Positions 9,644 to 61,957 of a DNA stretch of 61,957 bases are shown here, piece after piece; within the stretch, counting starts at the first letter, position 1, and every line of letters starts with the position of its first letter. Below the pieces are notes generated by a model. That model was not told the DNA's origin and made no database searches. It worked only from the letters and a program-made list of their open reading frames with translations. Position numbers and translations under genes: made by a program. Source of the DNA: Planctomycetales bacterium (GTDB lineage: Bacteria > Planctomycetota > Planctomycetia > Pirellulales > S012-138); the NCBI GenBank assembly GCA_015488215.1, contig WFOE01000107.1:1-61957 (forward strand). Direction: 5' to 3'.

Positions 9644-9672
9644 TTGACGCGGGAGACGGAAGGTGATAGATT
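9644..9672 (+). promoter_or_regulatory. Putative sigma70-type promoter for the 9725 gene
   Basis: TTGACG-N17-TAGATT with a TG extended -10 element, in an AT-richer divergent intergenic region. Confidence 0.5.
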
Positions 9673-9724
9673 TCAGTGGAAATTGAGAATCAGTATCAAT
9701 ATCGCTGGGTGGATGCTGCTCGCC

Positions 9725-10039: not shown

Positions 10040-10252
10040 TTGTTGGGACCGCATCCGAGGTCCGGGTCTTTATTCTGTTTGCCAGGTTCTTCTGCCTGCC
10101 ACGGCTGGGAACGGTATGCGCCGTCCGGCCACCGGGGCACGGGCAAGCTCGGGGCGTGGAAGCTTCTAACAGCGTGTCACCAAACCTCCCGGCATCACTC
10201 CAGTCCTCGGGCGTGGCGATTCGCCCGGAAGTTTTGTGACTGCCATGAGGAA

Positions 10253-10330
10253 GGAGCTTCGGCTCCGAGGCGGGAATCCACGCCGATTCTTGCAAGGGGA
10301 GAGCCGTCTTTTTGCAACGGGAGAGCCGTC
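10253..10330 (+). repeat. Degenerate repeat locus B: mini-hairpin + linker + REP-leader remnant with ~19-bp direct duplication
   Basis: GGAGC-TTCG-GCTCC at 10253-10266, then cgccgattcttgca as at 50220; ttgcaa(g/c)gggagagccgtc at 10290 and 10312. Confidence 0.6.
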
Positions 10331-10664
10331 GCACTTTTCCCCCATCAGTCGCCCGAAGCAGCGGGCCCCAGCCCGTGGAACCGGCAAGTGGAAGCTGTTG
10401 CTTTCCGCCGGGCCTTCCGGCACGCCTGGCTTCCCTTGCTGCTGAGGCAAACTTGTGAAACGGTAAAAACTGCAATACCATGAAGGGGGCATTAGGACAG
10501 GGGCGAGGCCTTTCCCGAAAAGCCGCCAGCGGCGGGCATGCTCCCGCAAATCGGGTCAGGGAGCCGTTCTGGTGCCGTTTCGGGAACTGCCACAAGGGGC
10601 TGTCTCAAACGAAAAACCAAAAAACAACGCACCGATCCAAAGCTAGTCGAAAAAGGATGTGCCA

Positions 10665-11630: not shown

Positions 11631-11700
11631 CAGAGTGAGCGCTTGCGACTGGGCAGGTGGCAAAGCGGACCGCAACGGTCGAAACCTTGAGGGAAGTTCC

Positions 11701-15194: not shown

Positions 15195-15260
15195 TGCGGT
15201 TTCCGCTGTTTGTGAGGGTGGCTGCTTGGAGCACGGGGCCAGTGTTTCTCCGTCCGGCGT

Positions 15261-15698
15261 TCAATCCTCCGGCGGGCCTGCCGGACGGATGGGCACGGGC
15301 CGCCGCGGCCAGGATTCCAGATCGACGGCCACGTAGGTGATTTGGGCCTGGGTTACCACGAGCGTTTTCCCCTCCCGTTCCGTTTCGACGCTCACGCGAA
15401 CCGTAATCGAGGTTCTGCCCACGCGGATCACGTTCGTCCAGAAACTGACCACGTCGCCTACTAGCACCGCGTGGTGGAACTCCACCTGGTTCATGGCCAC
15501 GGTAACCAGCGGGGGAACCGGCCAGCCAGCTTGGGCCAGGGCGTGGGCTGCCCCGATCACGCCCGCCTGGTCGATATGGCTCAGCAGCACTCCGCCGAAG
15601 ATTGTTCCGTGAACGTTGGTGTCCTTGGGCATCATCATCACCCGCAGCGCCAGGTGCCGTTGGGCCATGGTTTCCGGCAACCGAGTAGTTTGACTCAT
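15261..15698 (-). CDS. Acyl-CoA thioesterase (hotdog fold, YciA-like)
   Basis: MMPKDTNVHGTIFGGVLLSHIDQAG, VGRTSITVRV, TYVAVD. Confidence 0.92.
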   Translation of the reverse strand: MSQTTRLPETMAQRHLALRVMMMPKDTNVHGTIFGGVLLSHIDQAGVIGAAHALAQAGWPVPPLVTVAMNQVEFHHAVLVGDVVSFWTNVIRVGRTSITVRVSVETEREGKTLVVTQAQITYVAVDLESWPRRPVPIRPAGPPED

Positions 15699-15998
15699 GG
15701 CAAGCGCTCCGCGGAGAGTTGCTGGATGAACGAGAAATAGAGAAATAGACCGCCGCTCCCTTTGTACCACACCCAATCGACCAGGGAGGAGGACCTTTGC
15801 CGGGAAAGAAAAGAGGGGCTCGCTCCAGCAGCGAGGGTCAGATTCGCAAACGTCGATGCCCATCGAGCTGCGCGGACGCAGCCTCCCAGCGCTGCTTTAA
15901 CTTCCCGCTGCGTTTGGTTCTGGGGACAGCTCGGGCGCGTGCGTTCCGCTGCAGGAACAAACGCCGCATCGGGCGCGCAAGCCCCCGCCCACAAGCGG

Positions 15999-17027
15999 CT
16001 AGGATTGCACGTCCTGGGGGCGAATACCGGCCAGGTCCTCGATTACTTTCTGCAACCCGAAGACCACACGAGCCAGCCGGTCCAGGTCCACTTTGTCGAT
16101 GGTGTCCTGGGGCGTGTGATAGTACGGGTAACGGAACGGAGCCGTGTCGGTAACCATCAGCGCCGGATAGCCGTGCTGCCAGAAAGACCAGTGATCGGAC
16201 CAGCCCACCCCGGAGATTGCTTCCGGAAGCGCCGCCGCTTCGGACGGGATGCGCCCATAGCGGCGGAACGTGCCCACGACCCGGGCCACCAGACTGCGGG
16301 AGCGCAGATTGCCCACAAAGCCGATGAAATTGCCTCGGGAAGGATAAAACAAGCTGAACGGCGGCGGATACTGCTGCGTGCCGGGTTCGTCCCGGTAGTA
16401 GCCCATCGTTTCCAGACTGAGCATGGCCACGATGTTCTCCTGGCGCTGGCGGCAGCGGCGGGCATAGCGGAACGAACCCATCGCTTCGGTGGAAAAATAC
16501 GGGGGTTCCTCGTTCACAAACAGAACGAACCGCAGCGTGCGGGCCGGCCGGGCTCGCCGGAACTGCTCGGCCAGAGCCAGCAGGGCGACCACGCCGGTGC
16601 CGTTGTCGTTGGCCGCCGGACAGCCAGGAACGGAATCATAATGGGCCCCCACCACCACGATCTGGTCCGGCTCATCGGTGCCGGGCAGCTCCACTTCCAG
16701 ATTTCGGCAGGCGACCCCGTCCACCTGGAACTCCTGCGGCTGCACCCGGTAGCCCATCTGTTCCAATTGCTGTTGGAGATACCCCGCCTGTTCCAAGGTT
16801 TCCGGTTCCTGGGTGCTGCGAGGGCCAATCTGCTCGGCCAGCACCTTCAGATGGCGTTCCATCCGCTGCCGGTAGCGGAGCTCCTGCTCGTTCAGCGGCG
16901 GCAACGGTCCTTGGAAGCTTTTGCCCGGAAAAAACATGGTGTACCACCCGCAACCGAACACCAGCAGGACAAGCGACCCGTACACGGCCAGCCGGAGGCG
17001 CCATCGCCGAGGTTTTCTGGGGGCCAA
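15999..17027 (-). CDS. M28 family peptidase (aminopeptidase)
   Basis: GAHYDS, ANDNGTG, NEEPP, SDHWSF and YHTPQD zinc ligands; N-terminal TM; start approximate (TTG). Confidence 0.88.
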   Translation of the reverse strand: MAPRKPRRWRLRLAVYGSLVLLVFGCGWYTMFFPGKSFQGPLPPLNEQELRYRQRMERHLKVLAEQIGPRSTQEPETLEQAGYLQQQLEQMGYRVQPQEFQVDGVACRNLEVELPGTDEPDQIVVVGAHYDSVPGCPAANDNGTGVVALLALAEQFRRARPARTLRFVLFVNEEPPYFSTEAMGSFRYARRCRQRQENIVAMLSLETMGYYRDEPGTQQYPPPFSLFYPSRGNFIGFVGNLRSRSLVARVVGTFRRYGRIPSEAAALPEAISGVGWSDHWSFWQHGYPALMVTDTAPFRYPYYHTPQDTIDKVDLDRLARVVFGLQKVIEDLAGIRPQDVQS

Positions 17028-38559: not shown

Positions 38560-41500
38560 ATGCGCACCTTGTGGCGGATGTTCAAATGGCTTCTGGCCCT
38601 GGGGCTTACCGCCCTGGTGGTGGGGCTGGTGCTCTGGCACACGATGGCCGACCAGAAGCTCCGCGCCTGGGTCCAACAGCGGCTGCAACGGGCCTACCCG
38701 GAGCTGGCGGTCCAGATCGGCTCGGTCCGGTTGGAACGCCGGCGGCTGGTCATCTCGGAACTGAAGCTGTCGCTGCCGCAGCAGCAAGAAGCGGCGCCGG
38801 TGCTGGCAATCGAGGAGTTGGAGCTACGGACCGACTTGACCTGGCAACAACTGCTGCGGGGCGACGTAACCGTGCAGGAGGTGGTGATTCGCGGTCCGCG
38901 GCTGCGAGCCGTCCGTCTGGCCGACGGAAGCTGGTCCATCCAGCGGCTGTGGCCCCTTCCCCGATTCTCCAAGAAACAACGCACGCTCCGAGGCCGCATC
39001 GAATCCGGACGGTTGGAGCTGGTGGACCCCAGTGCCCCGGGCACGGCACGGTTTCGGGTGCTTGATTTTCAAGGGGAGTTTGTGCGCCGGGTGCCCGAGC
39101 AGGGACCGCCGCAGTTTACGCTCACCGGCACGGCCCTGGCCGAGCATGTGCGACAGGTGCGGTTCGCCGTGGCCGTGGTCCCACAACAGAAAAGCTGGTC
39201 GCTTCAGGCCCGGGTGCAGCGGCTGGAAGTCACGCCGGAGCTGCTCGCCGCCCTGCCCCGGGAATTGCAACAGCAGTTGGGCCAGGTGCCGGTGATTCGT
39301 TTCCTGGCCGAAGCGCAGTTGCGGGCCGATTATCACCCGCGGCGGGCCGAACCGCTTCAGTTCCAACTGCAAGGGAGCTTTTCCCGCGGCATGCTCGATC
39401 ATCCCCGCCTGCCCTTCCCACTGCGAGAGATTGCCGGCCGTTTCGAGTGCACTCAGCGGCAACTCGTGCTGCGGCAGGTAGAGGCCCGAAGTCGCGACAC
39501 CCGCTTGAAGCTCGACGTGGTGCTGCACGGGCTCCAGCCCGGAGCCCCCGCGGAAGTTACTCTGCAAGCGGAAAACCTGCCGGTGGACCGGCAATTGCTC
39601 CAGGGAGCCCCCGGCCCCCTGGCGGGACTGTGGCCGCGTTTCCGCCCTCAGGGGCCGGTCAATCTCCAGGCCACGCTCAGCTACCGCCAGGGGCAATGGC
39701 GGGCCGAACAGGCCGACGTGCAGTGCCTAGGCCTGCGGTTCGTCTATCATCGGCTGCCGTATCCGGTGGCACAGGCCACCGGCACGATACGCCTCCGCGG
39801 TCGGCGTCTGGAACTGGACCTGCAAGGGCTGGCCGGGGGCGAGCCGGTGCGGATTGTCTCCCAGGTGGAAAACCCCGGACCGGAGTTCGTCGGCTGGGTG
39901 CGGGTGCAAGGGAACCGCATTCCTGTGGACCCGCAGTTGATTGCCGCCTTGCCATCCCGGAGCCGTGAAGTGCTGCAGCGGCTTCGCCCGCGGGGGACTA
40001 TCTCTTTCCAGAGCCGGTTCTACCGGGAGCGAGCCGGAGGTCCCCTGAACCGCCAGACCACCGTAAGCCTGAACCAGTGCTCGATTCGCTTCGATAAGTT
40101 CCCTTACCGCGTGGAGAACATCCGCGGCACGCTCAAACAGCAGGGGCGAAACTGGACCTTTCACAACTTGCAAGGTTCGCACGGACGTTGCCGAATCAGC
40201 GGTCGGGGACAGTTGCAAGTGGCCGATGACCACTCCGCGGTGTTCGAGCTGGAACTGACCGCACTGGCCCTGCCGCTGGATGAGGAGCTGCGCGCGGCCC
40301 TGCCGCCGAAAGTGCAACGGCTGTGGACGCAGCTCCGGCCGCACGGGCTGGTGGACGCCACGGCCCAACTGCGGTTCCACACTCCCGCCAAAAAGCTCGA
40401 TTTGACCGTGGAGCTGGAACCGGTCGGGCGGACTGTTTCCATCGAACCGGTGCCGTTTCCCTACCGGCTGGAATCGCTGGAAGGAAAGCTCGTCTACCGG
40501 AACGGGCATGCCCAATGGCAGGAGCTTCGGGCCGTGCATGGACCGGCGCGCATCCAGACCCAAGGCACGGCCGAAGCACTGCCCGGCGACGGCTGGCGGT
40601 TGCAGTTTTCGCGGTTTGTGGCCGAGCAGGTGACGGTGGATCGCCACCTGCGCGAAGCGCTTCCGCCGGTGCTTCGCCAACTGGCGCTAAAGCTCCGGCC
40701 CAACCGGCCGTTTATCGTCCGGGGCACCTGGTCGCTGGAACACCAGCCCCAGCGGACCGCCCCCTGGAAAAGCACCTGGGACGTGGAGCTGTTCTTGCAG
40801 CAGATGAACCTGCACCTGGGCGTGCTGGTGGAGAACATCCACGGTTCGGTGCGGCTGCAAGGCACCTGGGACGGCACCCGGTTGCACAGCCGCGGCCGGC
40901 TCGACTTGCAAAACGCCGTGTACCAGGGGTGGCAGTTCACCCAGGTGCGCGGCCCGCTGGAGCTGTTCAACGACCGCGTGTTGCTGGGGGCTCCTACGGC
41001 CGCCACCATTCAGCCAGGCAAGCTGCCGCACGTGACAGCCCAGTTCTACGGTGGCACGCTTTGGGGGGACGGCTGGGCCACCTGGGGAGCCGAGCCCCGC
41101 TTCGCTTTGCGCGTGCGAGGTCAGAACGTGCTGCTGGAGCGCCTGGCCCGGGAAGCCTTCCAGGGCAGGCAGCATCTTTCGGGCAAGTGTCACGGGGAGC
41201 TGGAATTGCGGGGCACGGACCGCGGGCTGCCTTCGCTAGTAGGCCGGGGATACATCCAACTGCGCGAAGCCGACGTGTACCAGTTGCCGCTGCTGGTGGC
41301 CATGCTCAAGGTGCTGCAATTGCAACTGCCCAGCACCACGGCGTTCACCACCAGCGACATCCGCTTCCGTCTGCAGGGAAGCCATATTTATCTCGACCGG
41401 ATCGACTTTGCCGGCGATGCCATTTCGCTGGTGGGAGCCGGCGAGATGAACCTGGACAAACAGGTGCGGCTGGTGTTCCGGGCCGAAGTGGGGCGGAGCG

Positions 41501-41739
41501 ATCGCCGCATTCCGCTGGTGGGCGAGCTTATCGGAGCCACCTCGCAACAGATTCTGCGGCTGTACGTGGACGGCCCGTTGGACAATCCCCGCATCCGCTC
41601 CGAGCCGTTCCCGCTGGTGGGCGACACGCTGGAACAGATTCAAGCCGGGCTGGAGCGATTGCCGGGCATGCAGCCGGTCTCACCGGCTCCGCGGGTTCCG
41701 CTTCAGCAAGGAAGCCCGTTTCCTCGCATTCGCTACTGA
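38560..41739 (+). CDS. AsmA-like (AsmA/TamB/YhdP superfamily) envelope protein
   Basis: Single N-terminal TM, about 1060 aa rich in beta-strands with internal repeats (RLPFPL/RLPYPV/KFPYRV/PFPYRL), and an AsmA-like C-terminus (LVGRGYIQL..ISLVGAGEM..VDGPLDNP). Confidence 0.8.
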   Translation: MRTLWRMFKWLLALGLTALVVGLVLWHTMADQKLRAWVQQRLQRAYPELAVQIGSVRLERRRLVISELKLSLPQQQEAAPVLAIEELELRTDLTWQQLLRGDVTVQEVVIRGPRLRAVRLADGSWSIQRLWPLPRFSKKQRTLRGRIESGRLELVDPSAPGTARFRVLDFQGEFVRRVPEQGPPQFTLTGTALAEHVRQVRFAVAVVPQQKSWSLQARVQRLEVTPELLAALPRELQQQLGQVPVIRFLAEAQLRADYHPRRAEPLQFQLQGSFSRGMLDHPRLPFPLREIAGRFECTQRQLVLRQVEARSRDTRLKLDVVLHGLQPGAPAEVTLQAENLPVDRQLLQGAPGPLAGLWPRFRPQGPVNLQATLSYRQGQWRAEQADVQCLGLRFVYHRLPYPVAQATGTIRLRGRRLELDLQGLAGGEPVRIVSQVENPGPEFVGWVRVQGNRIPVDPQLIAALPSRSREVLQRLRPRGTISFQSRFYRERAGGPLNRQTTVSLNQCSIRFDKFPYRVENIRGTLKQQGRNWTFHNLQGSHGRCRISGRGQLQVADDHSAVFELELTALALPLDEELRAALPPKVQRLWTQLRPHGLVDATAQLRFHTPAKKLDLTVELEPVGRTVSIEPVPFPYRLESLEGKLVYRNGHAQWQELRAVHGPARIQTQGTAEALPGDGWRLQFSRFVAEQVTVDRHLREALPPVLRQLALKLRPNRPFIVRGTWSLEHQPQRTAPWKSTWDVELFLQQMNLHLGVLVENIHGSVRLQGTWDGTRLHSRGRLDLQNAVYQGWQFTQVRGPLELFNDRVLLGAPTAATIQPGKLPHVTAQFYGGTLWGDGWATWGAEPRFALRVRGQNVLLERLAREAFQGRQHLSGKCHGELELRGTDRGLPSLVGRGYIQLREADVYQLPLLVAMLKVLQLQLPSTTAFTTSDIRFRLQGSHIYLDRIDFAGDAISLVGAGEMNLDKQVRLVFRAEVGRSDRRIPLVGELIGATSQQILRLYVDGPLDNPRIRSEPFPLVGDTLEQIQAGLERLPGMQPVSPAPRVPLQQGSPFPRIRY

Positions 41740-49939: not shown

Positions 49940-50264
49940 GGGCTTGGGGGAGTAAGGGGATGAAGCCGTGGGGACGTGGAGGGGGTGCTTCCGCTCCGGG
50001 GCGAGAATCGGCTTGCGGCTTGCGCCGTGCGCCTTGCGCGGTGCTTCCGCACCAGCGGGAAAAACGCTCGCACTCGTGCTCGTACTCGTAATCGTAATCG
50101 GCAGCTCGTTAACGGCAATCGCGAATCGGCAACCGGCGAGCCGCCGACTTGGAGAGGTCTTGCGTCTTGGGTCGTGTGTCTTGAGCAGGTGCTTCCGCAC
50201 CGATGCGAGAAGAAAGAATCGCCGATTCTTGCACTCGGCGAGCCGGAAGTTTCACTGCCCAGAG
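49940..50264 (+). repeat. Modular intergenic repeat locus G (contains all four tandem cassettes)
   Basis: Octamer cassette; hairpin 49984; GCTTGCG cassette 50010; hairpin 50040; hexamers 50067-50101; half-REP 50135-50150; GCGTCTT cassette 50156; hairpin 50188; degenerate REP 50237-50264. Confidence 0.92.
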
Positions 50265-50278
50265 ATAGGGGAGAGCCG

Positions 50279-51220
50279 TCAACTGCCCGAGGCGGTGCGG
50301 CTCGAATGCGGATGGGCCGCCTGGTAGGCGCGGAGCAACTGGGCCGTGGAGACGTGCGTATAAATCTGTGTGGTGGCCAGGCTCTTGTGGCCCAGCAGTT
50401 CCTGCACGCTGCGGATGTCCGCTCCGGCATCCAGCAGATGCGTAGCGAAGCTGTGCCGCAGCGTATGGGGCGAGGTACGCCGGTCCAGTCCGGTGATTTT
50501 GAGGTACTTTTCCAGCATCCGGGCCACGCTGCGGGTGGTGAGCCGCCGGCCAAAGCGATTGACAAACACCGGGGCAGCGGGTCCCTGGGGCACGTCCGGG
50601 GCCAGCGTGCGCACCTTCAGGTAATCCCGCAGGGCCTGCTGGGCGTAGGAACCCAAAGGAGCCAAGCGTTCGCGGCGTCCCTTGCCGCGCACGCGAAGCA
50701 ACGAACCGGCGAAGTCCAGGTCGCCGTCGTTCAGTCCGACCACTTCGCTCACGCGCAAGCCCGCCGAATACATCACTTCCAGGATGGCCCGATCCCGGAG
50801 TCCCAGCGGCGTGTCGGTCGGAGGAGCTTCCAGCAGTCGGGCCACCTCCTCGGTGGAGAGGAAGTGGGGCAGTTTGCGCTGCGGCCGGGGATTGCGCAGC
50901 GCCTTGGCCGGGTTCGTGCGGCACCAGCCTTGCAGAATCGCGTAGCGGAAGAAGCTACGCACCGCGGCCAATCGCCGGGCGATGGTCGAGCGAGCGTAGT
51001 GTTGCTCGTGCAACTGGCCCAGGTAGCCGCGCAAGTCCACCGCCGTAATCTGATCCACCGCGGGCTCCTGACCGAATTGCTGGGTAAGGTAGTCCAGCAG
51101 ATGGGTCAGGTCTTCGCGATAGCTTTTCACCGTCAATTGGGAAGCGTTCCGCTGGGCGGCCAGAAACTGCAAAAACCGCCCTGTGGCTTCTTGCAGCGCA
51201 GGGGCACTTGCCGTGGACAT
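50279..51220 (-). CDS. xerC: Tyrosine recombinase XerC
   Basis: TVKSYREDL, RRLAAVRSFF, RDRAILE.MYSAGLRVSE, GKGRRER, HTLRHSFATHLL, LLGH, TQIYTH catalytic residues. Confidence 0.88.
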   Translation of the reverse strand: MSTASAPALQEATGRFLQFLAAQRNASQLTVKSYREDLTHLLDYLTQQFGQEPAVDQITAVDLRGYLGQLHEQHYARSTIARRLAAVRSFFRYAILQGWCRTNPAKALRNPRPQRKLPHFLSTEEVARLLEAPPTDTPLGLRDRAILEVMYSAGLRVSEVVGLNDGDLDFAGSLLRVRGKGRRERLAPLGSYAQQALRDYLKVRTLAPDVPQGPAAPVFVNRFGRRLTTRSVARMLEKYLKITGLDRRTSPHTLRHSFATHLLDAGADIRSVQELLGHKSLATTQIYTHVSTAQLLRAYQAAHPHSSRTASGS

Positions 51221-51590: not shown

Positions 51591-52685
51591 TTATCGGTCC
51601 CCGGGCCACTGCCACACCACTTGAGTTTTGCCTGCTCCGCCGCGAGCGGTGAGCATTTCGTAAATGTGCAACCGACAGCAGAAACGAATGAAATCATCGC
51701 TACGTTGCAAATAACCCATCCAATCGCCAAAGCGGGCCTCTTTTCGCAGGGCGTAGTAGTTCTTCAGCGCCTGGACCACGCGGGGATCGTTCCCCTGATA
51801 GACGGCCACGTGCTTGAGCACCGGTTCGGTGCTGGGCACGCAGGGGCCGCTTGCTCCCCGGGGAGGGCAACCGGGGCCGGGACACCCCGGGCCGGACTGC
51901 GCAGTCGGGAAGGCACTGGTAGCAGCCGCCGCCTGCCGCGTGGCGGCAAAGGCACCGGTCTGCTTGGTTTGGTTCGCACCAGGCGAGGGCGGCGTTTGCG
52001 TTTTCGAGCCTTGCGGTTCGGGGGCCGGAAGAGCCGCCGCCGGGGCGGACTTTTCCCCGGTGGCAGCTTGCGGCTCGGGTAGCGGTTCTGGTGGTGGGAC
52101 GCGCGGGCCCTGGGGCGTTTGCCGGTTCATCGCTTTCCGGGCCTGGGCGAAGGCGGCTTCGTAGCGTAGCCGCTTGGGGATGTGTTCCGCTTGCGGCGTT
52201 CCCCAGGGCAGGCCGTAGCCGGGCGGGATGGGCTGAAAACATTCGTTGGCCGCGTACCATTCCACCACCAGCCCGCAACGCGGCGGGTAATACGGAGAAA
52301 AGTCCGTCACGGCTCCCACCACCACGGCGTCCACTTCCAGCAGTTGGGCCAGCCGCCGGGCGTCCTCGGGTCGGGCCAGCGAGAGCCGATGTTCCCGGAT
52401 CATGCGTTCCACTACGCCGATGGGAACCACCTCGTAGCCGGGCACGGATTGCAGCTCGTGATAGTAGGCCAGGGCGAACTGGCGGCCATCGACCCACGGC
52501 TCGGTGGTCAGGTTGAAAAACGGGGCCACGGCCACTTTGTGGATTTGCGGAAAGGGATTGAACACCTGCGGCTGATGAACCGGCTGGGGCAGAACCTCGC
52601 AACCGGCTCCGGCAAGCGAAAGCACCGTCGCCAGCAGGGCGGCCACCGCGGGGAATTCAGGCTTGGGGAATCGAGGCGGCGTCAT
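51591..52685 (-). CDS. Putative lipoprotein (CsgG/TolB-N-like alpha/beta domain, Pro-rich insert)
   Basis: Lipobox LAGAGC; KVAVAPFFNLT, VDAVVVGAVTDF. Confidence 0.75.
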   Translation of the reverse strand: MTPPRFPKPEFPAVAALLATVLSLAGAGCEVLPQPVHQPQVFNPFPQIHKVAVAPFFNLTTEPWVDGRQFALAYYHELQSVPGYEVVPIGVVERMIREHRLSLARPEDARRLAQLLEVDAVVVGAVTDFSPYYPPRCGLVVEWYAANECFQPIPPGYGLPWGTPQAEHIPKRLRYEAAFAQARKAMNRQTPQGPRVPPPEPLPEPQAATGEKSAPAAALPAPEPQGSKTQTPPSPGANQTKQTGAFAATRQAAAATSAFPTAQSGPGCPGPGCPPRGASGPCVPSTEPVLKHVAVYQGNDPRVVQALKNYYALRKEARFGDWMGYLQRSDDFIRFCCRLHIYEMLTARGGAGKTQVVWQWPGDR

Positions 52686-53108: not shown

Positions 53109-53801
53109 ATGCGACGCTTGATCTTGGCCGTTGCCCTTGTGGCCCTCGCCGCCGTCCAGGCGGTCGCCGGTCCGCGCGATCAGCAGATCGCCGAACAACT
53201 GGCCCAGAGCCTCAAGAACTCCGGCACCCTCAAAGGCTATGCCATCGCGGTCAAGTATCGCGACGGCACCGCCCGGCTGGACGGCTGGGTGCGCAACCGC
53301 CAGCAGATGGAAGAGGCGGTGCGCATCATCCAGCGGTCGCCGCAAGTGGAACGAGTCATCAACCGCCTGGCGATTCGGGAAAACCCGGGCACGCCGCCGG
53401 CGGCGCTGAAGACCCAAGGGACCCAGGCTGCGCCGCGCCCGCTGCTGCGGCAAGTCGGCTATCCGCGGACCCGAAGTGCGGTGCATCGCACCGGCGCCTA
53501 TCAGCAGCAGGCTCAGGGGATGCCCGTGCCGGAATACCGCCCGGTGGGAACGGGACCGGCCCCGGCGATTTACGATCATCCGAACCTGCCTCCGTACGCC
53601 TGGCCCACCTACGCCGCGTATCCCAACTATGCGGCCCTGACCTACCCGAAGCAGTACAGCCCGACGGCCTGGCCCTACATCGGCCCGTTCTACCCCTACC
53701 CGCAGGTGCCGCTGGGCTGGCGGAAAGTGACGCTGGAATGGGACGACGGTTGGTGGTTCCTGGACTTTTCCGACGACCGGCGCCACGTGCTGCCGCGGTG
53801 A
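53109..53801 (+). CDS. Exported BON-domain protein with Tyr/Pro/Trp-rich C-terminal domain
   Basis: Signal peptide; DQQIAEQL..IAVKYRDGTARLDGWV..VERVINRL (BON); YDHPNLPPYAWPTYAAYPNY...WRKVTLEWDDGWWFLDF. Confidence 0.85.
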   Translation: MRRLILAVALVALAAVQAVAGPRDQQIAEQLAQSLKNSGTLKGYAIAVKYRDGTARLDGWVRNRQQMEEAVRIIQRSPQVERVINRLAIRENPGTPPAALKTQGTQAAPRPLLRQVGYPRTRSAVHRTGAYQQQAQGMPVPEYRPVGTGPAPAIYDHPNLPPYAWPTYAAYPNYAALTYPKQYSPTAWPYIGPFYPYPQVPLGWRKVTLEWDDGWWFLDFSDDRRHVLPR

Positions 53802-54071: not shown

Positions 54072-54650
54072 ATGTCGGTCAAGTCCACCCTGTGGAGCGG
54101 ATTGCTGCTGGCGGCTCTGGTCGCCGGAAGCGGGTGCCAGGTAGCGTATGGTCCGGGACAATTGCAGGGACTCCATACGATCCCCATCCCGCTGTCCCCC
54201 TACTTCCAAAAGCTCCAGGAAAACCGCTTCTGGGAAAAGGAGCGGTACAACCGCGTAGCCATTCTGGGGCCGATCACTTCCGGCGGACCGCCCCGGGCGC
54301 TGGACCCGCCCAGTTGGGACGAGATCGTCCGGGCGTTGCCCTCGGTCGAAGGGGGCATCCCCTTCCTGCACGAAGTGCAGCGGAACAACGTCCGGATCGT
54401 CATCGAGCCGATCGGCGAATCGGTCGATCCGCCTCGCTTCTATCCGATGATTGGCTGGGCCCAACTGCACCACGCCCACTACAAGTGCACCGTCTACTAC
54501 ACCGAAGTGACCCGGGTGGGCTGGCCGATCCCTTATACCACGCGGGACGAAGACGCTTCGGAAGTCATCTATATCGACCACGACCACTTCCACCTGGTGG
54601 GCAACGTGGATGGCGGACCCACTTCGCACTATCAGCAGCACCCGCACTAG
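54072..54650 (+). CDS. Putative lipoprotein of unknown function
   Basis: GAGGA RBS; lipobox LVAGSGC; PIPLSPYFQ, DPPS..E, DPPRFYP.IG.AQLHHAHYKC, YIDHDHFH. Confidence 0.8.
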   Translation: MSVKSTLWSGLLLAALVAGSGCQVAYGPGQLQGLHTIPIPLSPYFQKLQENRFWEKERYNRVAILGPITSGGPPRALDPPSWDEIVRALPSVEGGIPFLHEVQRNNVRIVIEPIGESVDPPRFYPMIGWAQLHHAHYKCTVYYTEVTRVGWPIPYTTRDEDASEVIYIDHDHFHLVGNVDGGPTSHYQQHPH

Positions 54651-57600
54651 TCAGGCGACAAAGCCTGCCCCGCGCCGCACCGAACCCGGTGCGGCGTTCG
54701 GCTTTGCGCCGGCAAACACCCGGGGGTGGGTATCCTCGCCCCGAGCAACAGGCTGGCTGGCCGTGTTAGTGCTTGTGGGGCTTGTTCTGTTGGCCGGGCC
54801 CCTGAAGGCCGAAACGCCTCGGGAGGAAGCGACGCTGGCCGCCGAGGACACCTGGCGGGCGGCCGTGGCCCATTACCGTCACGGTCGCTGGCAACTGGCC
54901 GTGGTCGAACTGCAAGAGCTGGTGGAAAAACACCCGCGGTGGCCCGGTGTGGCCCAGGCCCAGTTCCTGCTGGGCGAAGCCCAAACCCAACTGCGACAGT
55001 ACGCCCTGGCCGAGCAAGCCTTTCGCCGCTGCTTGCAGCAGCCGGGGCTGCCCGACCGCTGGCGACGCCGCTGCACGTTCCGCTTGGGCGAGCTGGCTTT
55101 CTTCCAGGGCAAATGGGAACCTGCCCGAAAACTCCTCGCCCAGTTCGTTCAGGAAGCCAAGGACGATCCGTGGCTGGCGCAAGCCCACTGGCTGCTTGCC
55201 CAACTGGAGCAGCAACAGGGCCGGCTGGCCCGGGCCCAAGAGCATTTGCAGCGGTTGATCGAACAGTTTCCGCAAAGCCCGCTTCAGGACAGGGCCCGTG
55301 TGGCCCTGGCTGAAATCCTCCTCCGGCAAGGTCAGGAAGAAAAAGCCCTCCGCTACCTGGAAGCCGTAGCGGACAAACCTCGCAGCGAGGCGAAGTACCG
55401 GGCGCGGTTCCTGCTGGGGCGGCAACATTTTCTCCGCGGGCGGTACGAGGATGCCACGGCCCAGTTCCGCACCCTGCTTGCCCAGAAAGACCTGCCCCCA
55501 GGTTGGAAAAACGCCGCCCGGCTGGCCCTGGCCCGCTCGCTGCTTGCCGCCGGACGGCTCGACCCGGCCGCCGAGCTGCTAAAGGACCTGAGCAAAGAAG
55601 AACCTCCCCTGGGCTGGGAAGCCCGTTACTGGACAACCCATCTGCTGCGCAAGCACAGCAAGCTGCTCGAAGCGCAACGCCTGCTGGTTCAACTGGCCCG
55701 AGAACTGCAACAGGCCCGCAACACCGCTCGGGAAACCCATCGGGAGAACCGCGACCCTTCTCCGGACCGTAGCGAGTCGGACCCGGGAGCCGAGCCGCTT
55801 TCTATCTCCCCAGCCCGATGCTGGTACGAAGCCGCCGTGCTGGCCCACAAGACCGACCGCCGCCGCCAGGCCCGGGCGTGGTATCAGCAAGCAGCCGCCT
55901 CAGCCGGGGCGGACGAGCCTTGGGCGGCCCAAGCCTACTGGGGACTCTTGCGCCTGGCCACCGCCGAGCAGGACCAGCAAGCAGCCACCGCCGCTTGGAA
56001 GAAGCTGCTGGCCGAGCACAAACACCATGCGGACCTCCTGCGCCGGGCGCTGTGGCACCTGGGGCGTTTTCTGCTCCAGCAGCGGCAGTACCAGCAAACG
56101 TTGCGGCTGGTTGCCGAAGCCGAAAAATCGCTCGGGACGCAGTTGACCTGGCAGGCAGAGGCTCTGCGGGGGTTGGCCCTTTGCGGGCTGGGGCGTTACG
56201 CCGAGTCGGCTGCCCAGTTGCAAAAGCTGGTGGCGAAGCAGCCTGGCGCGAAGGCCGGTTCTTCCCCGGATGGCGTCTCCCAGGAGCAGATTCCAACGGA
56301 GATCCAGGCCGAGCTGTGGTACACCCTCGGCGTGTGTCATCTGGAACAGGGACGCTGGTCCCAGGCGACCGAAGCGTTCGCTCGGGCCATCGAGCTTGCT
56401 CCCTTGGCTCCGGTGGCCGCCCAGGCGCTGGCCGCCCAGGCGCTCGCGCAGACCCATCGGGGACAAGAGGAAGCAAGCCGCCGGTTGGTCGAACAACTGC
56501 TGGCCCAATTCCCCCAAGCTACGGAAGCGCTGCCTTGGATTCTGCGGCTTGCGCATCGGTACTACGAAACCCGGCGCTGGCCGGAAGCCGCTCGGTGCTA
56601 CCGCCTGGCACTTCGTTCCCCGCAGCCTGAAGAACAACTGGCTGCCCGATCCGGTCTGGCTTGGTCGCTTTGGGAACAAGGGGAGCTGGAACGCGCCTTG
56701 GACCAGTTCCTGCTGGTAGCCAAAGGTAAGCAGGTGGATTCCGCCCTGGCGGCCGAAGCGCTTTACATGGCCGGGCTCATCTGTCATCGCACCGAACGGT
56801 CCCAGCAAGCCCTCCGGCACTGGCAGCGTCTGATACAGGAGTTTCCCGGCTCGGAACACGCCCCCCAGGCGTTACTTGCCGCCGGGGAGGTGCTGGAACG
56901 GCTGGGCCGACCGAAACAGGCTTTAGAACACTACCAGAAACTGCTCGAGCAATACCCCAAGGCTCCCCAGCGCCCCGCGGCCCTGTTCAACGCCGCCTGG
57001 GTGGCTTGGGAACAAAACCGGCCCTGGCAAGCCCTGGAACTGATGGAACAGTTGGCCCGACGGTGGCCCGACCACTTGCTCTGGCCCCAGGCCGCCTTGC
57101 AACTGGCCTACTGGTTCCACACCCAAGGGCAGCGGGAAAAGGGGGCCGCTTGGGCTTCGCGGCTGGTGCGGCGTCCCGAGTGTCCCGACCGATACCGCGC
57201 CCAGGCCGCTTATCTGCTGGGCCGCATCGCCATCGAGCAGGAGAACTGGGCCGAAGTCCACCGCTGGATGGAAGCGGCCGCCCGAATGGCACCGGAAGAA
57301 AAAACCCGTCGCCAGGCCCGGTTCTGGGTCTGCGAAGCACTTTACCGCCAGGGACACTACGGCCGGGCCGCCGAGCAGATTGAACAGCTCCTCGGCCAAC
57401 TGCACCAGAAGGAGCTGCCCTGGATTGCCACGCTGCGGCTGCGGCAGGCCCAATGCCTGCTGCGGCAAAAGAAGTGGCGTCAGGCTCTCCGGACGGCCCA
57501 AGCCGCACTGGAACAACACCCGCAGTTTCCCCAGGCTTACGAGCTGCACTACGTCCGCGGCCGGGCACTGATGGCCCTGGCCGAGTTTGACCAGGCCCGA

Positions 57601-57936
57601 GCTGCTTTCCTCCGCGTGATCCATTCCGCCGGGGCCGCCGGCACGCAACGGGCAGCCGCCGCCCAGTGGATGATTGGGGAAACCTACTTCCACCAGCGCA
57701 ACTACCGCGAAGCCCTCCGGCACTATCTGCGGGTGGATGTCCTCTATCCCCACTGCCAAAGCTGGCAAGCTGCGGCACTTTTGCAGGCTGGGAAATGCTA
57801 CGAGAAGCTGGGGCAACCAGACAAGGCCTCGGAACTCTATTTGCGCATCGTGCGGTTGCCGGACGATTCTCCTTACAAGGACCAGGCTGCCCAACAGCTT
57901 CGGGCTCTGCGCAACCAGGAAACGGCCGTTCGCTAA
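54610..57936 (+). CDS. Large exported tetratricopeptide-repeat protein (YbgF/CpoB-like repeats)
   Basis: Signal-like hydrophobic stretch ending PLKA; many TPR units (LIEQFPQSP, LIQEFPGSEHAPQALL, LLEQYPKAP, AALLQAGKCYEKLG); start uncertain. Confidence 0.88.
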   Translation: MADPLRTISSTRTSQATKPAPRRTEPGAAFGFAPANTRGWVSSPRATGWLAVLVLVGLVLLAGPLKAETPREEATLAAEDTWRAAVAHYRHGRWQLAVVELQELVEKHPRWPGVAQAQFLLGEAQTQLRQYALAEQAFRRCLQQPGLPDRWRRRCTFRLGELAFFQGKWEPARKLLAQFVQEAKDDPWLAQAHWLLAQLEQQQGRLARAQEHLQRLIEQFPQSPLQDRARVALAEILLRQGQEEKALRYLEAVADKPRSEAKYRARFLLGRQHFLRGRYEDATAQFRTLLAQKDLPPGWKNAARLALARSLLAAGRLDPAAELLKDLSKEEPPLGWEARYWTTHLLRKHSKLLEAQRLLVQLARELQQARNTARETHRENRDPSPDRSESDPGAEPLSISPARCWYEAAVLAHKTDRRRQARAWYQQAAASAGADEPWAAQAYWGLLRLATAEQDQQAATAAWKKLLAEHKHHADLLRRALWHLGRFLLQQRQYQQTLRLVAEAEKSLGTQLTWQAEALRGLALCGLGRYAESAAQLQKLVAKQPGAKAGSSPDGVSQEQIPTEIQAELWYTLGVCHLEQGRWSQATEAFARAIELAPLAPVAAQALAAQALAQTHRGQEEASRRLVEQLLAQFPQATEALPWILRLAHRYYETRRWPEAARCYRLALRSPQPEEQLAARSGLAWSLWEQGELERALDQFLLVAKGKQVDSALAAEALYMAGLICHRTERSQQALRHWQRLIQEFPGSEHAPQALLAAGEVLERLGRPKQALEHYQKLLEQYPKAPQRPAALFNAAWVAWEQNRPWQALELMEQLARRWPDHLLWPQAALQLAYWFHTQGQREKGAAWASRLVRRPECPDRYRAQAAYLLGRIAIEQENWAEVHRWMEAAARMAPEEKTRRQARFWVCEALYRQGHYGRAAEQIEQLLGQLHQKELPWIATLRLRQAQCLLRQKKWRQALRTAQAALEQHPQFPQAYELHYVRGRALMALAEFDQARAAFLRVIHSAGAAGTQRAAAAQWMIGETYFHQRNYREALRHYLRVDVLYPHCQSWQAAALLQAGKCYEKLGQPDKASELYLRIVRLPDDSPYKDQAAQQLRALRNQETAVR

Positions 57937-57998
57937 ACGGGCCGGTGCAGCCTGGGCACACTTCCCCGAACGGTTCCCCAACTCCCAAGAGGGCCACG

Positions 57999-58850
57999 AT
58001 GCACCCGTTGGACGCTCTCCGGCCAAATCGAGGCCTTGCCGCCCAAGCGCCATTGCTGCTGGTTCTGCTCGCCTGGGCCGTGCTGAGCCTGGGGCAGCAA
58101 GCAGCCGCCCAAGAAACTGCGGCTGCCGCCGACCAGCCCCCGGCCAGCGCCGCTGGTACCCAGACGTTGATCCCTCAGGAGCGCAGCCTGCTGGAAGTAA
58201 TTCGCAGCGGCGGCGTGCTGATGGTGCCGATTCTGGCCTGTTCGGTGCTGACGCTGGTGTTCGTATTGGAACGGCTGGTGAGCCTGCGGCGAGGGAATGT
58301 CATCCCCCGCCCGTTTGTGAAACGGTTCCTGCTTCAGTTGGAACAGGGCCAGCTCGACCCGGAGCAGGCCCTGGAACTTTGCCAGCAGAATCGCAGTCCC
58401 GTGGCGGAACTGTTCGCCGCGGCGGTGCGTAAATGGGGCCGTCCCTCGGTCGAGGTGGAACAGGCCCTGATCGACGCCGGGGAACGGATTACCAACCACC
58501 TGCGCAAATATCTGCGCGTGCTTAACGCCGTGGCCACCGTCTGCCCGCTGTTGGGATTGCTGGGCACGGTGATGGGCATGATCGAAGCCTTCCAGTCCAT
58601 CGCCACCAACATGGCCCTGGGCCGGCCCGAGCTGCTGGCCGAAGGAATTAGCAAAGCCCTGGTCACCACGGCCGCGGGGCTTTCGGTGGCCATTCCGGCC
58701 CTGATTGCCTACCTGTACTTCGTCAGCCGCGTGGATCGCCTGGTGATGGAAATGGACGCCCTGGGCCAGGAAGTGGTGGAACTGGTGGCCGGAGACGCCC
58801 CGCGCCAGCCGGCCCGTTCCACGGCCAAACGCAAAGCCCGAGCCGCCTGA
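57999..58850 (+). CDS. exbB: MotA/TolQ/ExbB proton channel subunit
   Basis: SGGVLMVPI, ATVCPLLGLLGTVMGMIEAF, LAEGISKALVTTAAGLSVAIPA. Confidence 0.93.
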   Translation: MHPLDALRPNRGLAAQAPLLLVLLAWAVLSLGQQAAAQETAAAADQPPASAAGTQTLIPQERSLLEVIRSGGVLMVPILACSVLTLVFVLERLVSLRRGNVIPRPFVKRFLLQLEQGQLDPEQALELCQQNRSPVAELFAAAVRKWGRPSVEVEQALIDAGERITNHLRKYLRVLNAVATVCPLLGLLGTVMGMIEAFQSIATNMALGRPELLAEGISKALVTTAAGLSVAIPALIAYLYFVSRVDRLVMEMDALGQEVVELVAGDAPRQPARSTAKRKARAA

Positions 58851-58873
58851 CCCGCTCAAAAAACCGAACTGCC

Positions 58874-59293
58874 ATGCCGCTGAAAACGCATCGGGACGAA
58901 CTCCCTTCGCTGAACCTGACGCCGATGATCGATATCGTGTTCCTGCTGATCATTTTTTTCATGGTCAGCACTTCGTTTTCGCAGATGGAACGCGACATCC
59001 GGCTCCAGGTTCCGCGGGTGAAAAGCACCGGCCCGCTCACCCCCGCCCCGGAAAAAAAAGTCATCAACGTCTATCGCGACGGGCGGATTACCCTCGACGG
59101 ACAACCCGTCACCCTGGAAGAACTCCAGCGGCGGCTGCGCCACGCCCGAAAACTCTACCCCGACCAGGGCGTGGTAATCCGCGGCGACGGGCAAGGCACT
59201 TTCCAGCGCGTGGCCGAGGTGCTGGATAGCTGCCGCCAGGCGGGCCTAAAGGAACTGGCCGTCTCCGTGCAACCCATCCGCATAAGGAAGTAA
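58874..59293 (+). CDS. exbD: ExbD/TolR subunit
   Basis: LNLTPMIDIVFLLIIFFMV with the essential TM Asp; VVIRGD..F..V..VLD.C..AGL. Confidence 0.94.
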   Translation: MPLKTHRDELPSLNLTPMIDIVFLLIIFFMVSTSFSQMERDIRLQVPRVKSTGPLTPAPEKKVINVYRDGRITLDGQPVTLEELQRRLRHARKLYPDQGVVIRGDGQGTFQRVAEVLDSCRQAGLKELAVSVQPIRIRK

Positions 59294-59300
59294 CCCGGCA

Positions 59301-61442
59301 ATGCTCGTCGCCGTAGCTGTTCCGGCTTCGGTGCCCCTGTGGCTGTGGGTCATCTGGGCCCTATTGGGCCTGGTGAGCCTGGCGTTGCTGGTCGTGTTGC
59401 TTACTCCCTGGGGGCGTTCGCGGCCGCTGCGCAAATGCGTGCTAATTTCGCTGATGGTCCACGCGCTGCTGCTGACCTATGCGGCCACGGTGAAGATTCT
59501 GAGCGGCTACCGCGGCGTCCCGCAGGAAGAGATGGCCATTCGCATCGTGGACATTTCGACCGAACCGGAACCAGAATCCGCTCGGCAACCAGGCGAGCCG
59601 CAGCCCTGGGAACAGATGGACGAACCCCCGCCGCAGTTGCCCGCGGACATGCCCCGGCGCGAAGTGCCCCCGGCCGCAGAACCCGGTGCACCGGAGCGTC
59701 GGGCCGCGGAGCGGCAAGGCGCTAAGAGAACTCCCGTTCCGCCAGCTCCGGCGGCGAAGGAAACTTCCCCGGAAGAACCTCCTCCGCCGAAGGAATTGCC
59801 GCTGGCCGAACCCGTGCCGAAGCGCCCCGTCGCCTCGGCCCCCGCCCAGGCCACTCAGGCGCCGCAAGTGTCGGAGCCCAAGCGGCCGGCTCAGCCACCG
59901 GAGCTTCAGACGCCCAAGGAAGCCTTGCCCGGGCCGCCGCCCCACCGGGCCCGGCTGGAACCTTCCCCCGGCCAAGCCGCCGTGGTGCAACAGCACCCCG
60001 GGCCGGTGCTACCGGAGCTGAAGACTTCTCCGGAAGCGGAGCTGCTCCAGGGGCAGCTTCCCGCCGGCGGAAGCGAGTTGCCCGTTCCCCGATTCGACGC
60101 CCCGGGACCGCAGGCCCCCAGCGCTGCCGAACTGGTGCAGCAACACCGGCCGGAACGCTCCCCCCCAGCGACACCTCGACTCATCCGGCGCCGCAAGCCA
60201 GCGGCGATTGCCCAGGGAGAACCGGAGCCTGAACCCTCGGCCGATGAGCTCAAGCCGCTTCGGCCACTTGTGCCGGTACGGCTGGAACGCCCCGAGCAGG
60301 AGCCGCTCGCTGGGAAAGCCTCCCCGCTGGATGCTTCGCTTGCCCTGCGGACCGACCCCCAGCGGATGCAGCGCGTGCTGGAACAAGGCGGCAACGAAAA
60401 GACCGAGCAGGCGATTCAGTTGGCCCTGGCCTGGCTGGCCGCCCAACAGCAGCCCGACGGAAGCTGGTCTGCCACCGCTCATGGCGGAGGGCGCGATTTG
60501 CGCACGCTGGGCCAGGCTCGGCCCAAGGCCGGCACCCGAGCCGAAACGGGCATCACCGGGCTGGTGTTGCTGGCGTTTCTGGGAGCCGGACACACGCACG
60601 CTCGCGGGCCTTACAAGCAGAACATCGCCCGAGGGTTGGACTACTTGCTTGCTCAGCAGGACCGCAGCAGCGGCTCGCTCTCGGGCCGCGCCACGCTTTA
60701 CGCGGCCATGTATTGCCACGGCATGGCCACGCTGGCCCTGGCCGAAAGCTACCTGATGACCGGCGATCCCCGGTTGAAAGAACCGCTGCGGCGGGCCGTC
60801 GGCTACACGCTGAAAGCCCAACACCCCTACACCGGCGGTTGGCGCTACCGGGTCGGCGACGCCCTGGGGGACACCAGCCAGTTGGGCTGGCAGTTGATGG
60901 TGCTGCACTGTGGTCGCATGGCCCGAGTGCAGGATAGCCCCCTGGCGTGGCAGCGGGCCGGGTGGTTTCTGCGCTCGGTTTCTTCCGGCCGCCGCGGAGG
61001 GCTGGCCGCTTACCAGGTGGGCCATCGCCCCTCCCCGACGATGACCGCCGAGGCCCTCTTTTGCCGCGTGCTGCTGGGCACTCCGGCCGACGACCCGGCC
61101 TTGCAAGAAGCGGCCGACTATCTCATGGACCACCTGCCCCGACAAACCGAGCCGAACTTCTACTACTGGTACTACGGCACGCTAGGGCTGTATCACTTGC
61201 AGGACGAACACTGGCGGCGGTGGAACCAGACGCTGGTGCGGACCCTGCTGGCCCTGCAAGAACAGCACGGTCCCCAGCGTGGGAGCTGGACTGCCCGTTC
61301 GGCCTGGGGAGGCTACGGCGGTCGGGCCTTTACGACCGCGCTGGCCGTCATGTCGCTGGAAGTCTATTACCGCTACGTGCCGGCTTATGCTCAGGCCCCG
61401 GGCAAACGGGCCGCCCGAGGGCCCGGCCTGCTGCGGCGCTAG
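59301..61442 (+). CDS. Membrane-anchored TonB/TolA-like protein (SxxxH TM, Pro-rich linker) with C-terminal prenyltransferase/squalene-cyclase-like alpha/alpha barrel
   Basis: TM2 LISLMVHALLL; about 260 aa Pro/Glu-rich linker; QW repeats WLAAQQQPDGSW, YLLAQQDRSSG, LKAQHPYTGGWRY and LLALQEQHGPQRGSW; YYWYYGT. Confidence 0.85.
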   Translation: MLVAVAVPASVPLWLWVIWALLGLVSLALLVVLLTPWGRSRPLRKCVLISLMVHALLLTYAATVKILSGYRGVPQEEMAIRIVDISTEPEPESARQPGEPQPWEQMDEPPPQLPADMPRREVPPAAEPGAPERRAAERQGAKRTPVPPAPAAKETSPEEPPPPKELPLAEPVPKRPVASAPAQATQAPQVSEPKRPAQPPELQTPKEALPGPPPHRARLEPSPGQAAVVQQHPGPVLPELKTSPEAELLQGQLPAGGSELPVPRFDAPGPQAPSAAELVQQHRPERSPPATPRLIRRRKPAAIAQGEPEPEPSADELKPLRPLVPVRLERPEQEPLAGKASPLDASLALRTDPQRMQRVLEQGGNEKTEQAIQLALAWLAAQQQPDGSWSATAHGGGRDLRTLGQARPKAGTRAETGITGLVLLAFLGAGHTHARGPYKQNIARGLDYLLAQQDRSSGSLSGRATLYAAMYCHGMATLALAESYLMTGDPRLKEPLRRAVGYTLKAQHPYTGGWRYRVGDALGDTSQLGWQLMVLHCGRMARVQDSPLAWQRAGWFLRSVSSGRRGGLAAYQVGHRPSPTMTAEALFCRVLLGTPADDPALQEAADYLMDHLPRQTEPNFYYWYYGTLGLYHLQDEHWRRWNQTLVRTLLALQEQHGPQRGSWTARSAWGGYGGRAFTTALAVMSLEVYYRYVPAYAQAPGKRAARGPGLLRR

Positions 61443-61612: not shown

Positions 61613-61957
61613 GGCAAGCCCCGGACTTCGGTTCGGGGAGATGAGAGGAAACGGTCTTTTGTGACTTTTCTCCGGGAGCTAACACTCACGGCTCGCCGAG
61701 TGCCGATTGCGACTCTACACGCTCGTTTATTCTTGCCTCGGAGCGGAAGCTCCCAGTGGTCACGGCCCGGCCGCCTCCGCCGACTGAAGTCGGCGGCTCG
61801 CTGAGTGCGATGAGCGATAACGAGCTGCCGATTCCGAATCGAGTACGAGCACGAGCGTTTGTTTTCCGCTGGTGCGGGAGCACCCGCGCAAGGCGCACGG
61901 CGCAAGCCGCAAGCCTATCCTCGCCCGGAGCGGAAGCTCCCCTCCAAGCCCCCACAC
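61613..61957 (-). repeat. Modular intergenic repeat locus H (truncated by window end)
   Basis: Inverted REP doublet 61613/61670; hairpin 61740; REP 61775; hexamers ~61828-61857; hairpin 61871; heptamer cassette 61885-61915; hairpin 61927; octamer cassette 61941-end. Confidence 0.92.

Follow-up and report, generated by a model that had tools for sequence, protein, structure and literature searches.

The window analysed here, 61,957 nt in length, is the entire contig WFOE01000107.1 (hereafter C107) of a Planctomycetales bacterium, the assembly of which (GCA_015488215.1) amounts to 4.29 Mb and is 96.5% complete. Towards its right end lies a cluster of four genes, all on the + strand, which encode, in this order, a large protein with tetratricopeptide repeats (TPR), an ExbB/TolQ-family protein, an ExbD/TolR-family protein, and a 713-aa protein in which a TonB-like front half is joined to an (alpha/alpha)6 toroid (Table 1). 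A first-pass annotation, made from the letters of the DNA without database searches, had described these four genes as co-oriented and separated by gaps of 62, 23, and 7 bp, and the coordinates of the open reading frames (ORFs) agree with it.

Table 1. Features of the cluster in the window, followed by the exbB loci of the same genome. Residue numbers are those of the 713-aa protein; contigs are named where a locus lies outside the window.
Feature	Position	Strand	Basis or remark
BON-domain secreted protein	53109..53801	+	Pfam BON, E 3.3e-12; associated gene, outside the core finding
Lipoprotein, 192 aa, no known family	54072..54650	+	lipobox Cys22 at 54135-54137; associated gene, outside the core finding
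TPR protein, 1108 aa, N-terminal hydrophobic anchor	54610..57936	+	many TPR Pfam families
ExbB/TolQ-family proton-channel subunit, 283 aa from ATG, N-terminal signal-like segment	57999..58850	+	PF01618, E 7.5e-31
ExbD/TolR-family subunit, 139 aa, single copy	58874..59293	+	PF02472, E 5.2e-32
Toroid-headed TonB-like protein, 713 aa	59301..61442	+	homologue set and structure model
Two-helix membrane hairpin (TM1 13-34, basic loop 35-46, TM2 47-68)	59337..59504	+	model, loop charge
S50-L-M-V-H54, candidate SxxxH motor-docking motif	59448..59462	+	homologue conservation
M78-AIRIV-D84, D-box/motor-box-like strand, 28 residues past S50	59532..59552	+	published pattern
Disordered Pro/Ala/Glu-rich linker, residues 69-344 (276 aa)	59505..60332	+	composition, pLDDT
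PWE motif in linker (W103)	59604-59612	+	conservation
(alpha/alpha)6 toroid domain, residues 345-697	60333..61391	+	model and fold matches
Lipoprotein - TPR - ExbB - ExbD - toroid protein (713 aa)	C107 (window)		
TPR (1085 aa) - ExbB - ExbD - toroid protein (1374 aa); paralogous operon	C255 (locus L088), 7575-16431	-	
vWA protein - TPR-like - ExbB - ExbD - ExbD	C55 (L089)		
TPR (1592 aa) - ExbB - ExbD - ExbD	C43 (L090)		
HEAT-repeat protein (737 aa) - exbB-exbD-exbD - PQQ/BamB-like beta-propeller protein (1136 aa)	C97 (L091)		

The second and third proteins of the cluster matched the families MotA_ExbB and ExbD, respectively. Both scored higher against the TolQ and TolR equivalog models than against those of ExbB and ExbD, with all of these scores below the curated cut-offs. 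In ExbD, the transmembrane residue Asp20 (58931-58933) was kept in 75 of the 76 aligned rows, the remaining row having a gap, and Thr190 and Thr224 of ExbB were kept in all 73 homologues. We take D20 to correspond to the proton-binding aspartate, and T190 and T224 to the threonine ring, of the E. coli motor. These assignments are in line with the available part of a recent study of related machines (PMC12204202). The TPR protein matched the ybgF-type TPR model TIGR02795 in six stretches (220.8 bits).

For the 713-aa protein, 558 homologues were found at E <= 1e-3 among the 8000 candidates scored, and the motif counts given below rest on the 120 listed of these 558; an AlphaFold2 model was built from 65 aligned sequences. 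The model has two helices, at residues 13-34 and 42-68, arranged as a hairpin, which agrees with the two N-terminal transmembrane segments (TMs) and the basic loop that had been described in the first-pass annotation. The loop between them (residues 35-46; 59403-59438) reads TPWGRSRPLRKC, and its consensus across the homologues, TRWGQSRPLRKC, is more conserved than the anchor helices themselves. The S-L-M-V-H motif was confirmed at its reported position in TM2, and its conservation, which had been named as a check on the whole proposal, was borne out: a Ser and a His four residues apart occur in 119 of the 120 homologues (31%-96% identity), with P0118, which has AxxxH, as the exception, and alignment A1 shows no variation at S50 or H54. 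Because L, V, I, and F replace one another at the helix positions beside them while the Ser and the His are fixed, the conservation of SxxxH is beyond chance.

About 28 residues past the serine there is a beta-prone segment of alternating character, which reads MAIRIVD in the window protein and MRVTFVD, ITVTLVS, or VQVTLVE in relatives. The D-box pattern, as given in the available part of PMC10907165, was present in 33 of the 120 homologues, where shuffled versions of these segments would give 6.7, and a relaxed form of the pattern was present in 35, against 4.1 expected. Beyond the hairpin, the Pro/Glu-rich linker that had been estimated at about 260 aa turned out to comprise 276 residues, rich in Pro, Ala, and Glu: residues 70-339 (n = 270) contain 64 prolines (24%), 35 alanines, and 34 glutamates. 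It was modelled as disordered across residues 78-338, with a predicted local distance difference test (pLDDT) below 50 over most of them. A PWE motif (W103) is at least 90% conserved within this otherwise variable linker.

The side of the membrane on which the toroid lies was considered from the distribution of charges. Lys and Arg amount to 3.87 and Asp and Glu to 0.07 per 13 aa in the inter-helix loop, while Lys and Arg amount to 0.90 per 14 residues ahead of TM1 and to 1.43 per 15 after TM2. By the positive-inside rule, the basic loop is expected to be cytoplasmic, and thus both ends of the protein, including the toroid, would be periplasmic. The paralogues of the same genome are consistent with this arrangement, as in three of them a lone SxxxH helix comes after a long N-terminal region, which in one case carries CxxC pairs, and a fourth, of 374 aa, has an RR-containing signal peptide only. 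A cytoplasmic barrel had been named as an observation that would count against the proposal; the charges and the paralogues suggest, instead, that the toroid is in the periplasm.

The genome also provides an internal control for the TonB-like anchor, since the W-I/L-x-S-x-x-x-H helix of the window protein recurs in its own canonical TonB (C147; TonB_C, E 3.7e-15) and in the vWA protein encoded beside exbB-exbD-exbD on C55, both of which carry it as W-I-A-S-x-x-x-H. Of the SxxxH helices, one is attached to TonB_C (C147), two to vWA-type domains (C55 and C11, the latter being locus L103), and others to toroids on C107, C88, C236, and C16. Five exbB loci were found in total (Table 1), and the one on C255 is a paralogous operon with a toroid protein of its own, the helix of which has AxxxH in place of SxxxH. 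The cluster on C55 resembles the published vWA cassette. Among the other paralogues, the toroid gene of C16 follows gyrA and its product is the one with N-terminal CxxC pairs, and C158 (12010-13131) encodes a soluble toroid paralogue of 374 aa that lacks an anchor and begins with an RR-containing, Tat-like signal peptide.

The association of the toroid gene with the motor genes was evaluated in the 80 best loci, all planctomycetal, by searching stop-to-stop ORFs with the window proteins; the figures therefore apply to closer relatives, of 32%-55% identity. A gene for ExbD lies directly upstream on the same strand in 74 of the 74 loci with at least 600 nt of upstream sequence, and exbB and exbD are both upstream, again on the same strand, in 63 of the 63 loci with at least 1700 nt, so the co-occurrence with exbBD that had been proposed as a further check holds among these 80. 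The TPR gene directly precedes exbB on the same strand in 35 of the 45 loci whose upstream DNA extends over 7 kb or more. When the best toroid gene was located in five more complete genomes, from other families of the class, three had it 1.3-1.7 kb behind exbB-exbD(-exbD).

Relatives of the 713-aa protein are encoded in at least 600 genomes, as counted by a pattern scan with one genome per species. Toroid domains of this type (E <= 1e-40) were found in at least 197 of the 301 genomes of a phylum sample, a lower bound, since the initial screen was stricter, and full-length orthologues (E <= 1e-72) in at least 67 of 121 genomes of the class, with families f107 and f111 below the threshold. Queries made of the N-terminal 80 or 350 residues alone were insensitive, missing family f3, which has full-length orthologues, and their tallies were not used; the N-terminal query matched, in other families across the phylum, proteins about 1240-1470 aa long. 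The 120 listed homologues are unnamed, called "hypothetical", or, in two cases, called "squalene--hopene cyclase", and their organism labels, where given, are all planctomycetal. In the Protein Atlas, the 713-aa protein and the lipoprotein encoded upstream of the TPR gene both fall in "hypothetical protein" clusters of Planctomycetota.

In the model, residues 345-697 form a confident all-helical domain (pLDDT mostly >90), folded as an (alpha/alpha)6 toroid. In a comparison with 48,161 chains by VIA-align, the top fold matches were squalene-hopene cyclase 1gsz (Z 25.6, root-mean-square deviation 3.0, 289 aligned) and the single-domain cyclase 8paj (Z 25.6), so that the cyclase-like barrel predicted by the first-pass annotation has a counterpart among solved structures. 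Next came drimenyl diphosphate synthase (Z 24.1), oxidosqualene cyclase (23.4), and AprG (23.3), followed by toroids of glycoside hydrolases and epimerases (Z 20-23) and the beta subunits of prenyltransferases (about 19). The best match by Foldseek was also 8paj (E 7e-5), in weak agreement with VIA-align. Since glycoside hydrolase toroids reach Z 20-23, the fold alone cannot assign the family. By sequence, the best match of the toroid to solved structures had an E of 0.44, and neither TonB_C nor vWA domains were matched by Pfam in the 713-aa protein.

These matches, together with the names given by the sources to two of the 120 listed relatives, could be taken to mean that the protein is a genuine squalene-hopene cyclase, and residues 360-456 do produce a borderline match to the Pfam family SQHop_cyclase_C, just above the cut-off (26.6 vs. 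26.1 bits). The NCBIfam models are far from agreeing, with 27.6 bits for TIGR01507 (hopene_cyclase) against a cut-off of 431.1, and 24.8 for TIGR01787 against 322.7. The general acid of class II terpene cyclases is supplied by a DxDD motif. It was looked for by a plain string scan, because no true squalene-hopene cyclase in this genome reached the model cut-off and could be used for alignment; the string D.DD is absent from the window protein and occurs in the last 380 residues of only five of the 120 homologues. As the family scores are far under their cut-offs, the acid motif is missing, and there is one toroid and not two, the protein is not a cyclase, and its predicted place in the periplasm, on a long tether, also speaks against this identity, which we regard as extremely improbable. 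The toroid appears to be a derivative of the class II terpene-cyclase fold without the acid motif, and a role in binding, or as an enzyme of another kind, is more likely for it than cyclization.

Taken as a whole, the front half of the protein fits the features of a transducer and the head does not, which points to a TonB/TolA-like way of working without membership in the family; the protein is neither a member of the TonB family nor a cyclase. We consider it probable that it is a periplasmic force transducer of the TonB/TolA class with a non-TonB head, and comparative evidence gives good support to the mechanism proposed for its motor end. The paralogous operon on C255 and the precedent of vWA-headed proteins, as far as it is described in the available part of PMC12204202, were both counted in favour of this reading.

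Several observations weigh against it. Three orphan toroid proteins of 528-698 aa, each with a single SxxxH helix (C88/L093, C236/L094, and C16/L095), have no exbBD nearby, and in two of the five further genomes neither exbB nor exbD turned up in the 6.5 kb ahead of the toroid gene, one of these genes adjoining gyrB. The SHLS pattern is only half kept, in its S and H, with Ala at offset +11 in 97 of 119 homologues and Lys, Gln, or Arg at +15, and the strict D-box pattern is absent from 87 of the 120. The anchor departs from that of TonB or TolA in being a hairpin of two helices, the loop of which is highly conserved and predicted to be cytoplasmic. Lastly, 44 columns of the toroid are invariant, and polar residues are frequent among them (H433, H473, E482, D489, R515, D524, and E584).

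With so many invariant columns, which include acidic, histidine, and aromatic residues, an enzyme is also compatible; they would suit a pocket for a specific ligand as well as a catalytic site. The toroid could then be a membrane-tethered periplasmic enzyme, acting for example on glycan, peptidoglycan, or isoprenoid lipid, that the motor gates or positions, or with which it just shares an operon, and pulling on an outer-membrane partner would not be its purpose. The closeness in score of the glycoside hydrolase, epimerase, and lyase toroids to the terpene cyclases (Z 20-23 vs. 25.6) and weak Pec_lyase matches of Pfam in the 713-aa protein and its paralogues are in keeping with such an activity. 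An enzyme, however, would have no need of the SxxxH helix, the D-box-like strand, and the 276-residue arm, which are nevertheless conserved jointly with exbBD, and neither a catalytic motif of any named family nor a relative by sequence among the solved structures was identified. We therefore judge this explanation unlikely.

Ion-driven motors of 5:2 stoichiometry power flagella, gliding, TonB-dependent import, and the Tol-Pal system. If the 713-aa protein is a force transducer, ExbB and ExbD would constitute the proton-driven motor of the inner membrane, presumably as an ExbB pentamer around an ExbD dimer, by analogy with the solved Ton and Tol motors. TM2 of the 713-aa protein would dock on this motor through S50 and H54, and the beta-prone MAIRIVD segment (residues 78-84), just outside the membrane, may be captured by the periplasmic dimer of ExbD. 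The proline-rich linker of 276 residues would span the periplasm, and the toroid would grip a ligand or a partner at the cell wall or the outer membrane, or close to them. The large TPR protein may act as a periplasmic scaffold, and the lipoprotein and the BON protein encoded upstream, both conserved class-wide, would share the same functional neighbourhood. The energizing of the barrel by the motor, and a role in the handling of lipids, hopanoids, or macromolecules, as had been suggested from the sequence, would be compatible with this scheme.

The lipoprotein gene overlaps the start of the TPR gene by 41 nt. In each of the 33 homologues of the lipoprotein that were examined, a Cys comes after a signal peptide, and the family alignment (A2) has a mean column identity of 61%, with H133, H134, D169, H172, and H174 invariant. 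The histidine clusters, together with D169, E164, and a near-invariant C139, suggest a putative metal site. No Pfam family and no OmpA-like peptidoglycan-binding domain were matched in the lipoprotein, and the fold search with its model gave no clear match (best Z 4.6). Its gene is within the cluster in 27 of the 45 loci whose upstream sequence reaches 7 kb or more, sitting directly ahead of exbB in the loci without the TPR gene, and it was found in 118 of the 121 sampled genomes of the class (115 of the 116 of high quality). In the 301-genome phylum sample, it was matched in 17, all of families f1-f3, and in none of the 284 genomes from other families.

As for the BON protein, its ORF opens at 52842, and translation probably begins with the ATG at 53109, ahead of a signal peptide. 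In 19 of 26 related loci, the lipoprotein gene is preceded by a BON homologue that ends 900 nt or less before it, and the BON gene precedes that of the lipoprotein in four of the six genomes in which the latter is unlinked to the motor. In many genomes the pair is far from the motor, at about 50 kb in G190 and megabases away in G043.

This neighbourhood invites another explanation, which would make the cluster a planctomycetial version of Tol-Pal, with the toroid arm engaging the lipoprotein and, together with the BON and TPR proteins, tethering or remodelling the outer membrane in growth and budding. TolB_N was not found in a search of the whole genome, at its 96.5% completeness, and OmpA-like domains were found only on C231 and C70. 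The genome does have a canonical TonB on C147 and two receptors of the TonB-dependent type, with Plug domains, on C40 and C31; the first-pass annotation had seen no TonB-dependent receptor, tolB, or pal adjacent to the cluster, and these genome-wide results agree with it. A Tol-Pal counterpart would also suit the leaning of the motor subunits towards TolQ and TolR, the ybgF/CpoB-type repeats of the TPR protein, the overlap of the lipoprotein and TPR genes and their shared cluster in the 27 loci mentioned, and the near-complete presence of the lipoprotein in the class and its restriction to f1-f3 in the phylum sample. The frequent separation of the lipoprotein-BON pair from the motor, and the want of an OmpA-like peptidoglycan-binding domain in the lipoprotein, are against it, and contact between toroid and lipoprotein is hypothetical. 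A complex predicted from residues 340-713 of the toroid protein (A1) and residues 23-192 of the lipoprotein, its mature part (A2), gave an ipSAE of 0.00/0.00, below the mark, which, having no controls, counts neither way. On balance we find this explanation quite improbable.

A wider scheme can be put forward tentatively, as a doubtful extension of the force-transducer reading. Toroid arms might be the main output of the envelope motors of Planctomycetia, serving as interchangeable "grippers", with two arms encoded in operons and three orphans that maybe share motors. Along with the class-specific, histidine-rich lipoprotein, the BON protein, and giant TPR scaffolds, they might replace Tol-Pal in these FtsZ-less budding bacteria, or else power uptake through the outer membrane, and the toroid could be a catalytically dead cyclase barrel that holds a lipid, a glycan, or a protein tail under load.

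Downstream of the toroid gene, a tatA-like gene was observed in 39 of the 68 loci with at least 1 kb of sequence on that side. As it is present only in these loci and is not found in the closest relative, L001, it was rejected as a core part of the cassette and is considered a frequent neighbour. Many relatives (for example, L002, L003, and L078) have two or three tandem tatA-like genes behind the toroid gene, and the present genome has three tandem tatA genes on a separate contig (C161:18694-19855). The window itself stops 515 nt past the toroid gene, where a copy of a dispersed repeat closes the contig, and the assembly probably breaks there because of this repeat. Copies of it, of about 200-300 bp, lie in the window at 61651-61957 and, inverted, at 49968-50150; there are more than 40 genome-wide, with 72%-92% identity, several of them at contig ends (for example, C5:1-194, C74:97-1, C303, and C211).

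Other genes of the window include one for a large envelope protein resembling YhdP/DUF748 (38560-41739), on the basis of weak matches below the cut-offs, one for a tyrosine recombinase of the XerC/D type (50279-51220, - strand), and one for a Pro-rich protein of 364 aa without a Pfam family (51591-52685), of which a second instance was found only in L001.

The significance of the cluster lies in the toroid on a very long arm, which would be a second type of non-TonB head, beside the vWA type proposed in 2025, and in the genetic handle that the cassette gives on envelope energetics in Planctomycetes, whose periplasm, division, and uptake are unusual. Its breadth adds to this, with relatives across the species genomes counted above and the lipoprotein nearly universal in the class. 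The recurrent mis-annotation of such proteins as squalene-hopene cyclases is also corrected.

In comparison with known systems, the 713-aa protein is like TonB in its SxxxH helix, in a candidate D-box strand some 28 residues past the Ser, in the proline-rich linker, predicted to be periplasmic, and in its place after exbB-exbD, and differs from it in having neither TonB_C nor a receptor gene nearby. It shares with TolA, and the cluster with the Tol-Pal system and its CpoB (YbgF) partner, a motor that leans towards TolQ/TolR, an SxxxH anchor, a TPR partner of the ybgF type, and a lipoprotein; here, however, TolB was not found in the genome, the lipoprotein of the cluster is not OmpA-like, the head is a toroid, and the TPR protein has 1108 residues, compared with the 263 positions of the CpoB model NF008068. 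With the class II terpene cyclases it has in common the best fold match (Z 25.6, 289-294 residues aligned) and QW-like repeats (A-L-x-W-L-x-x-x-Q-x-x-D-G-S-W), but the identity is 16%-17%, there is no DxDD, the family score is far under the cut-off, squalene-hopene cyclase has two toroids instead of one, and a periplasmic tether is predicted here.

The closest published analogue, as far as can be told from the available part of the report, is the cassette of vWA-headed, motor-driven force transducers that was described behind TPR-tolQ-tolR in PVC and other bacteria (Mol Biol Evol 2025, PMC12204202). Of the toroid-headed form, no description was found by full-text literature searches, which did not extend to the supplements of PMC12204202, where more head types might be listed. 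The vWA transducers, as described there, resemble the window protein in their docking helix with Ser and His, in a disordered region with a motor box (a candidate one in the window protein), in a proline-rich linker, in a globular head that is not of the TonB type, and in the location of their genes behind those for TPR and tolQ/tolR-like proteins in PVC bacteria. They differ from it in the head, which is a vWA domain there and an (alpha/alpha)6 toroid here; in the motor genes, with a heterologous tolR pair there and a single exbD/tolR gene here; in the anchor, which in the window protein is a two-helix hairpin with a conserved, predicted cytoplasmic loop; and in the linker, of about 100 residues there and about 276 here. 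Given this nearly identical published design (PMC12204202, as available), the class is less "distinct" than the first-pass annotation held when it proposed a distinct Ton/Tol-class motor. The conserved module is real, and it is a variant of a recently proposed type of machine.

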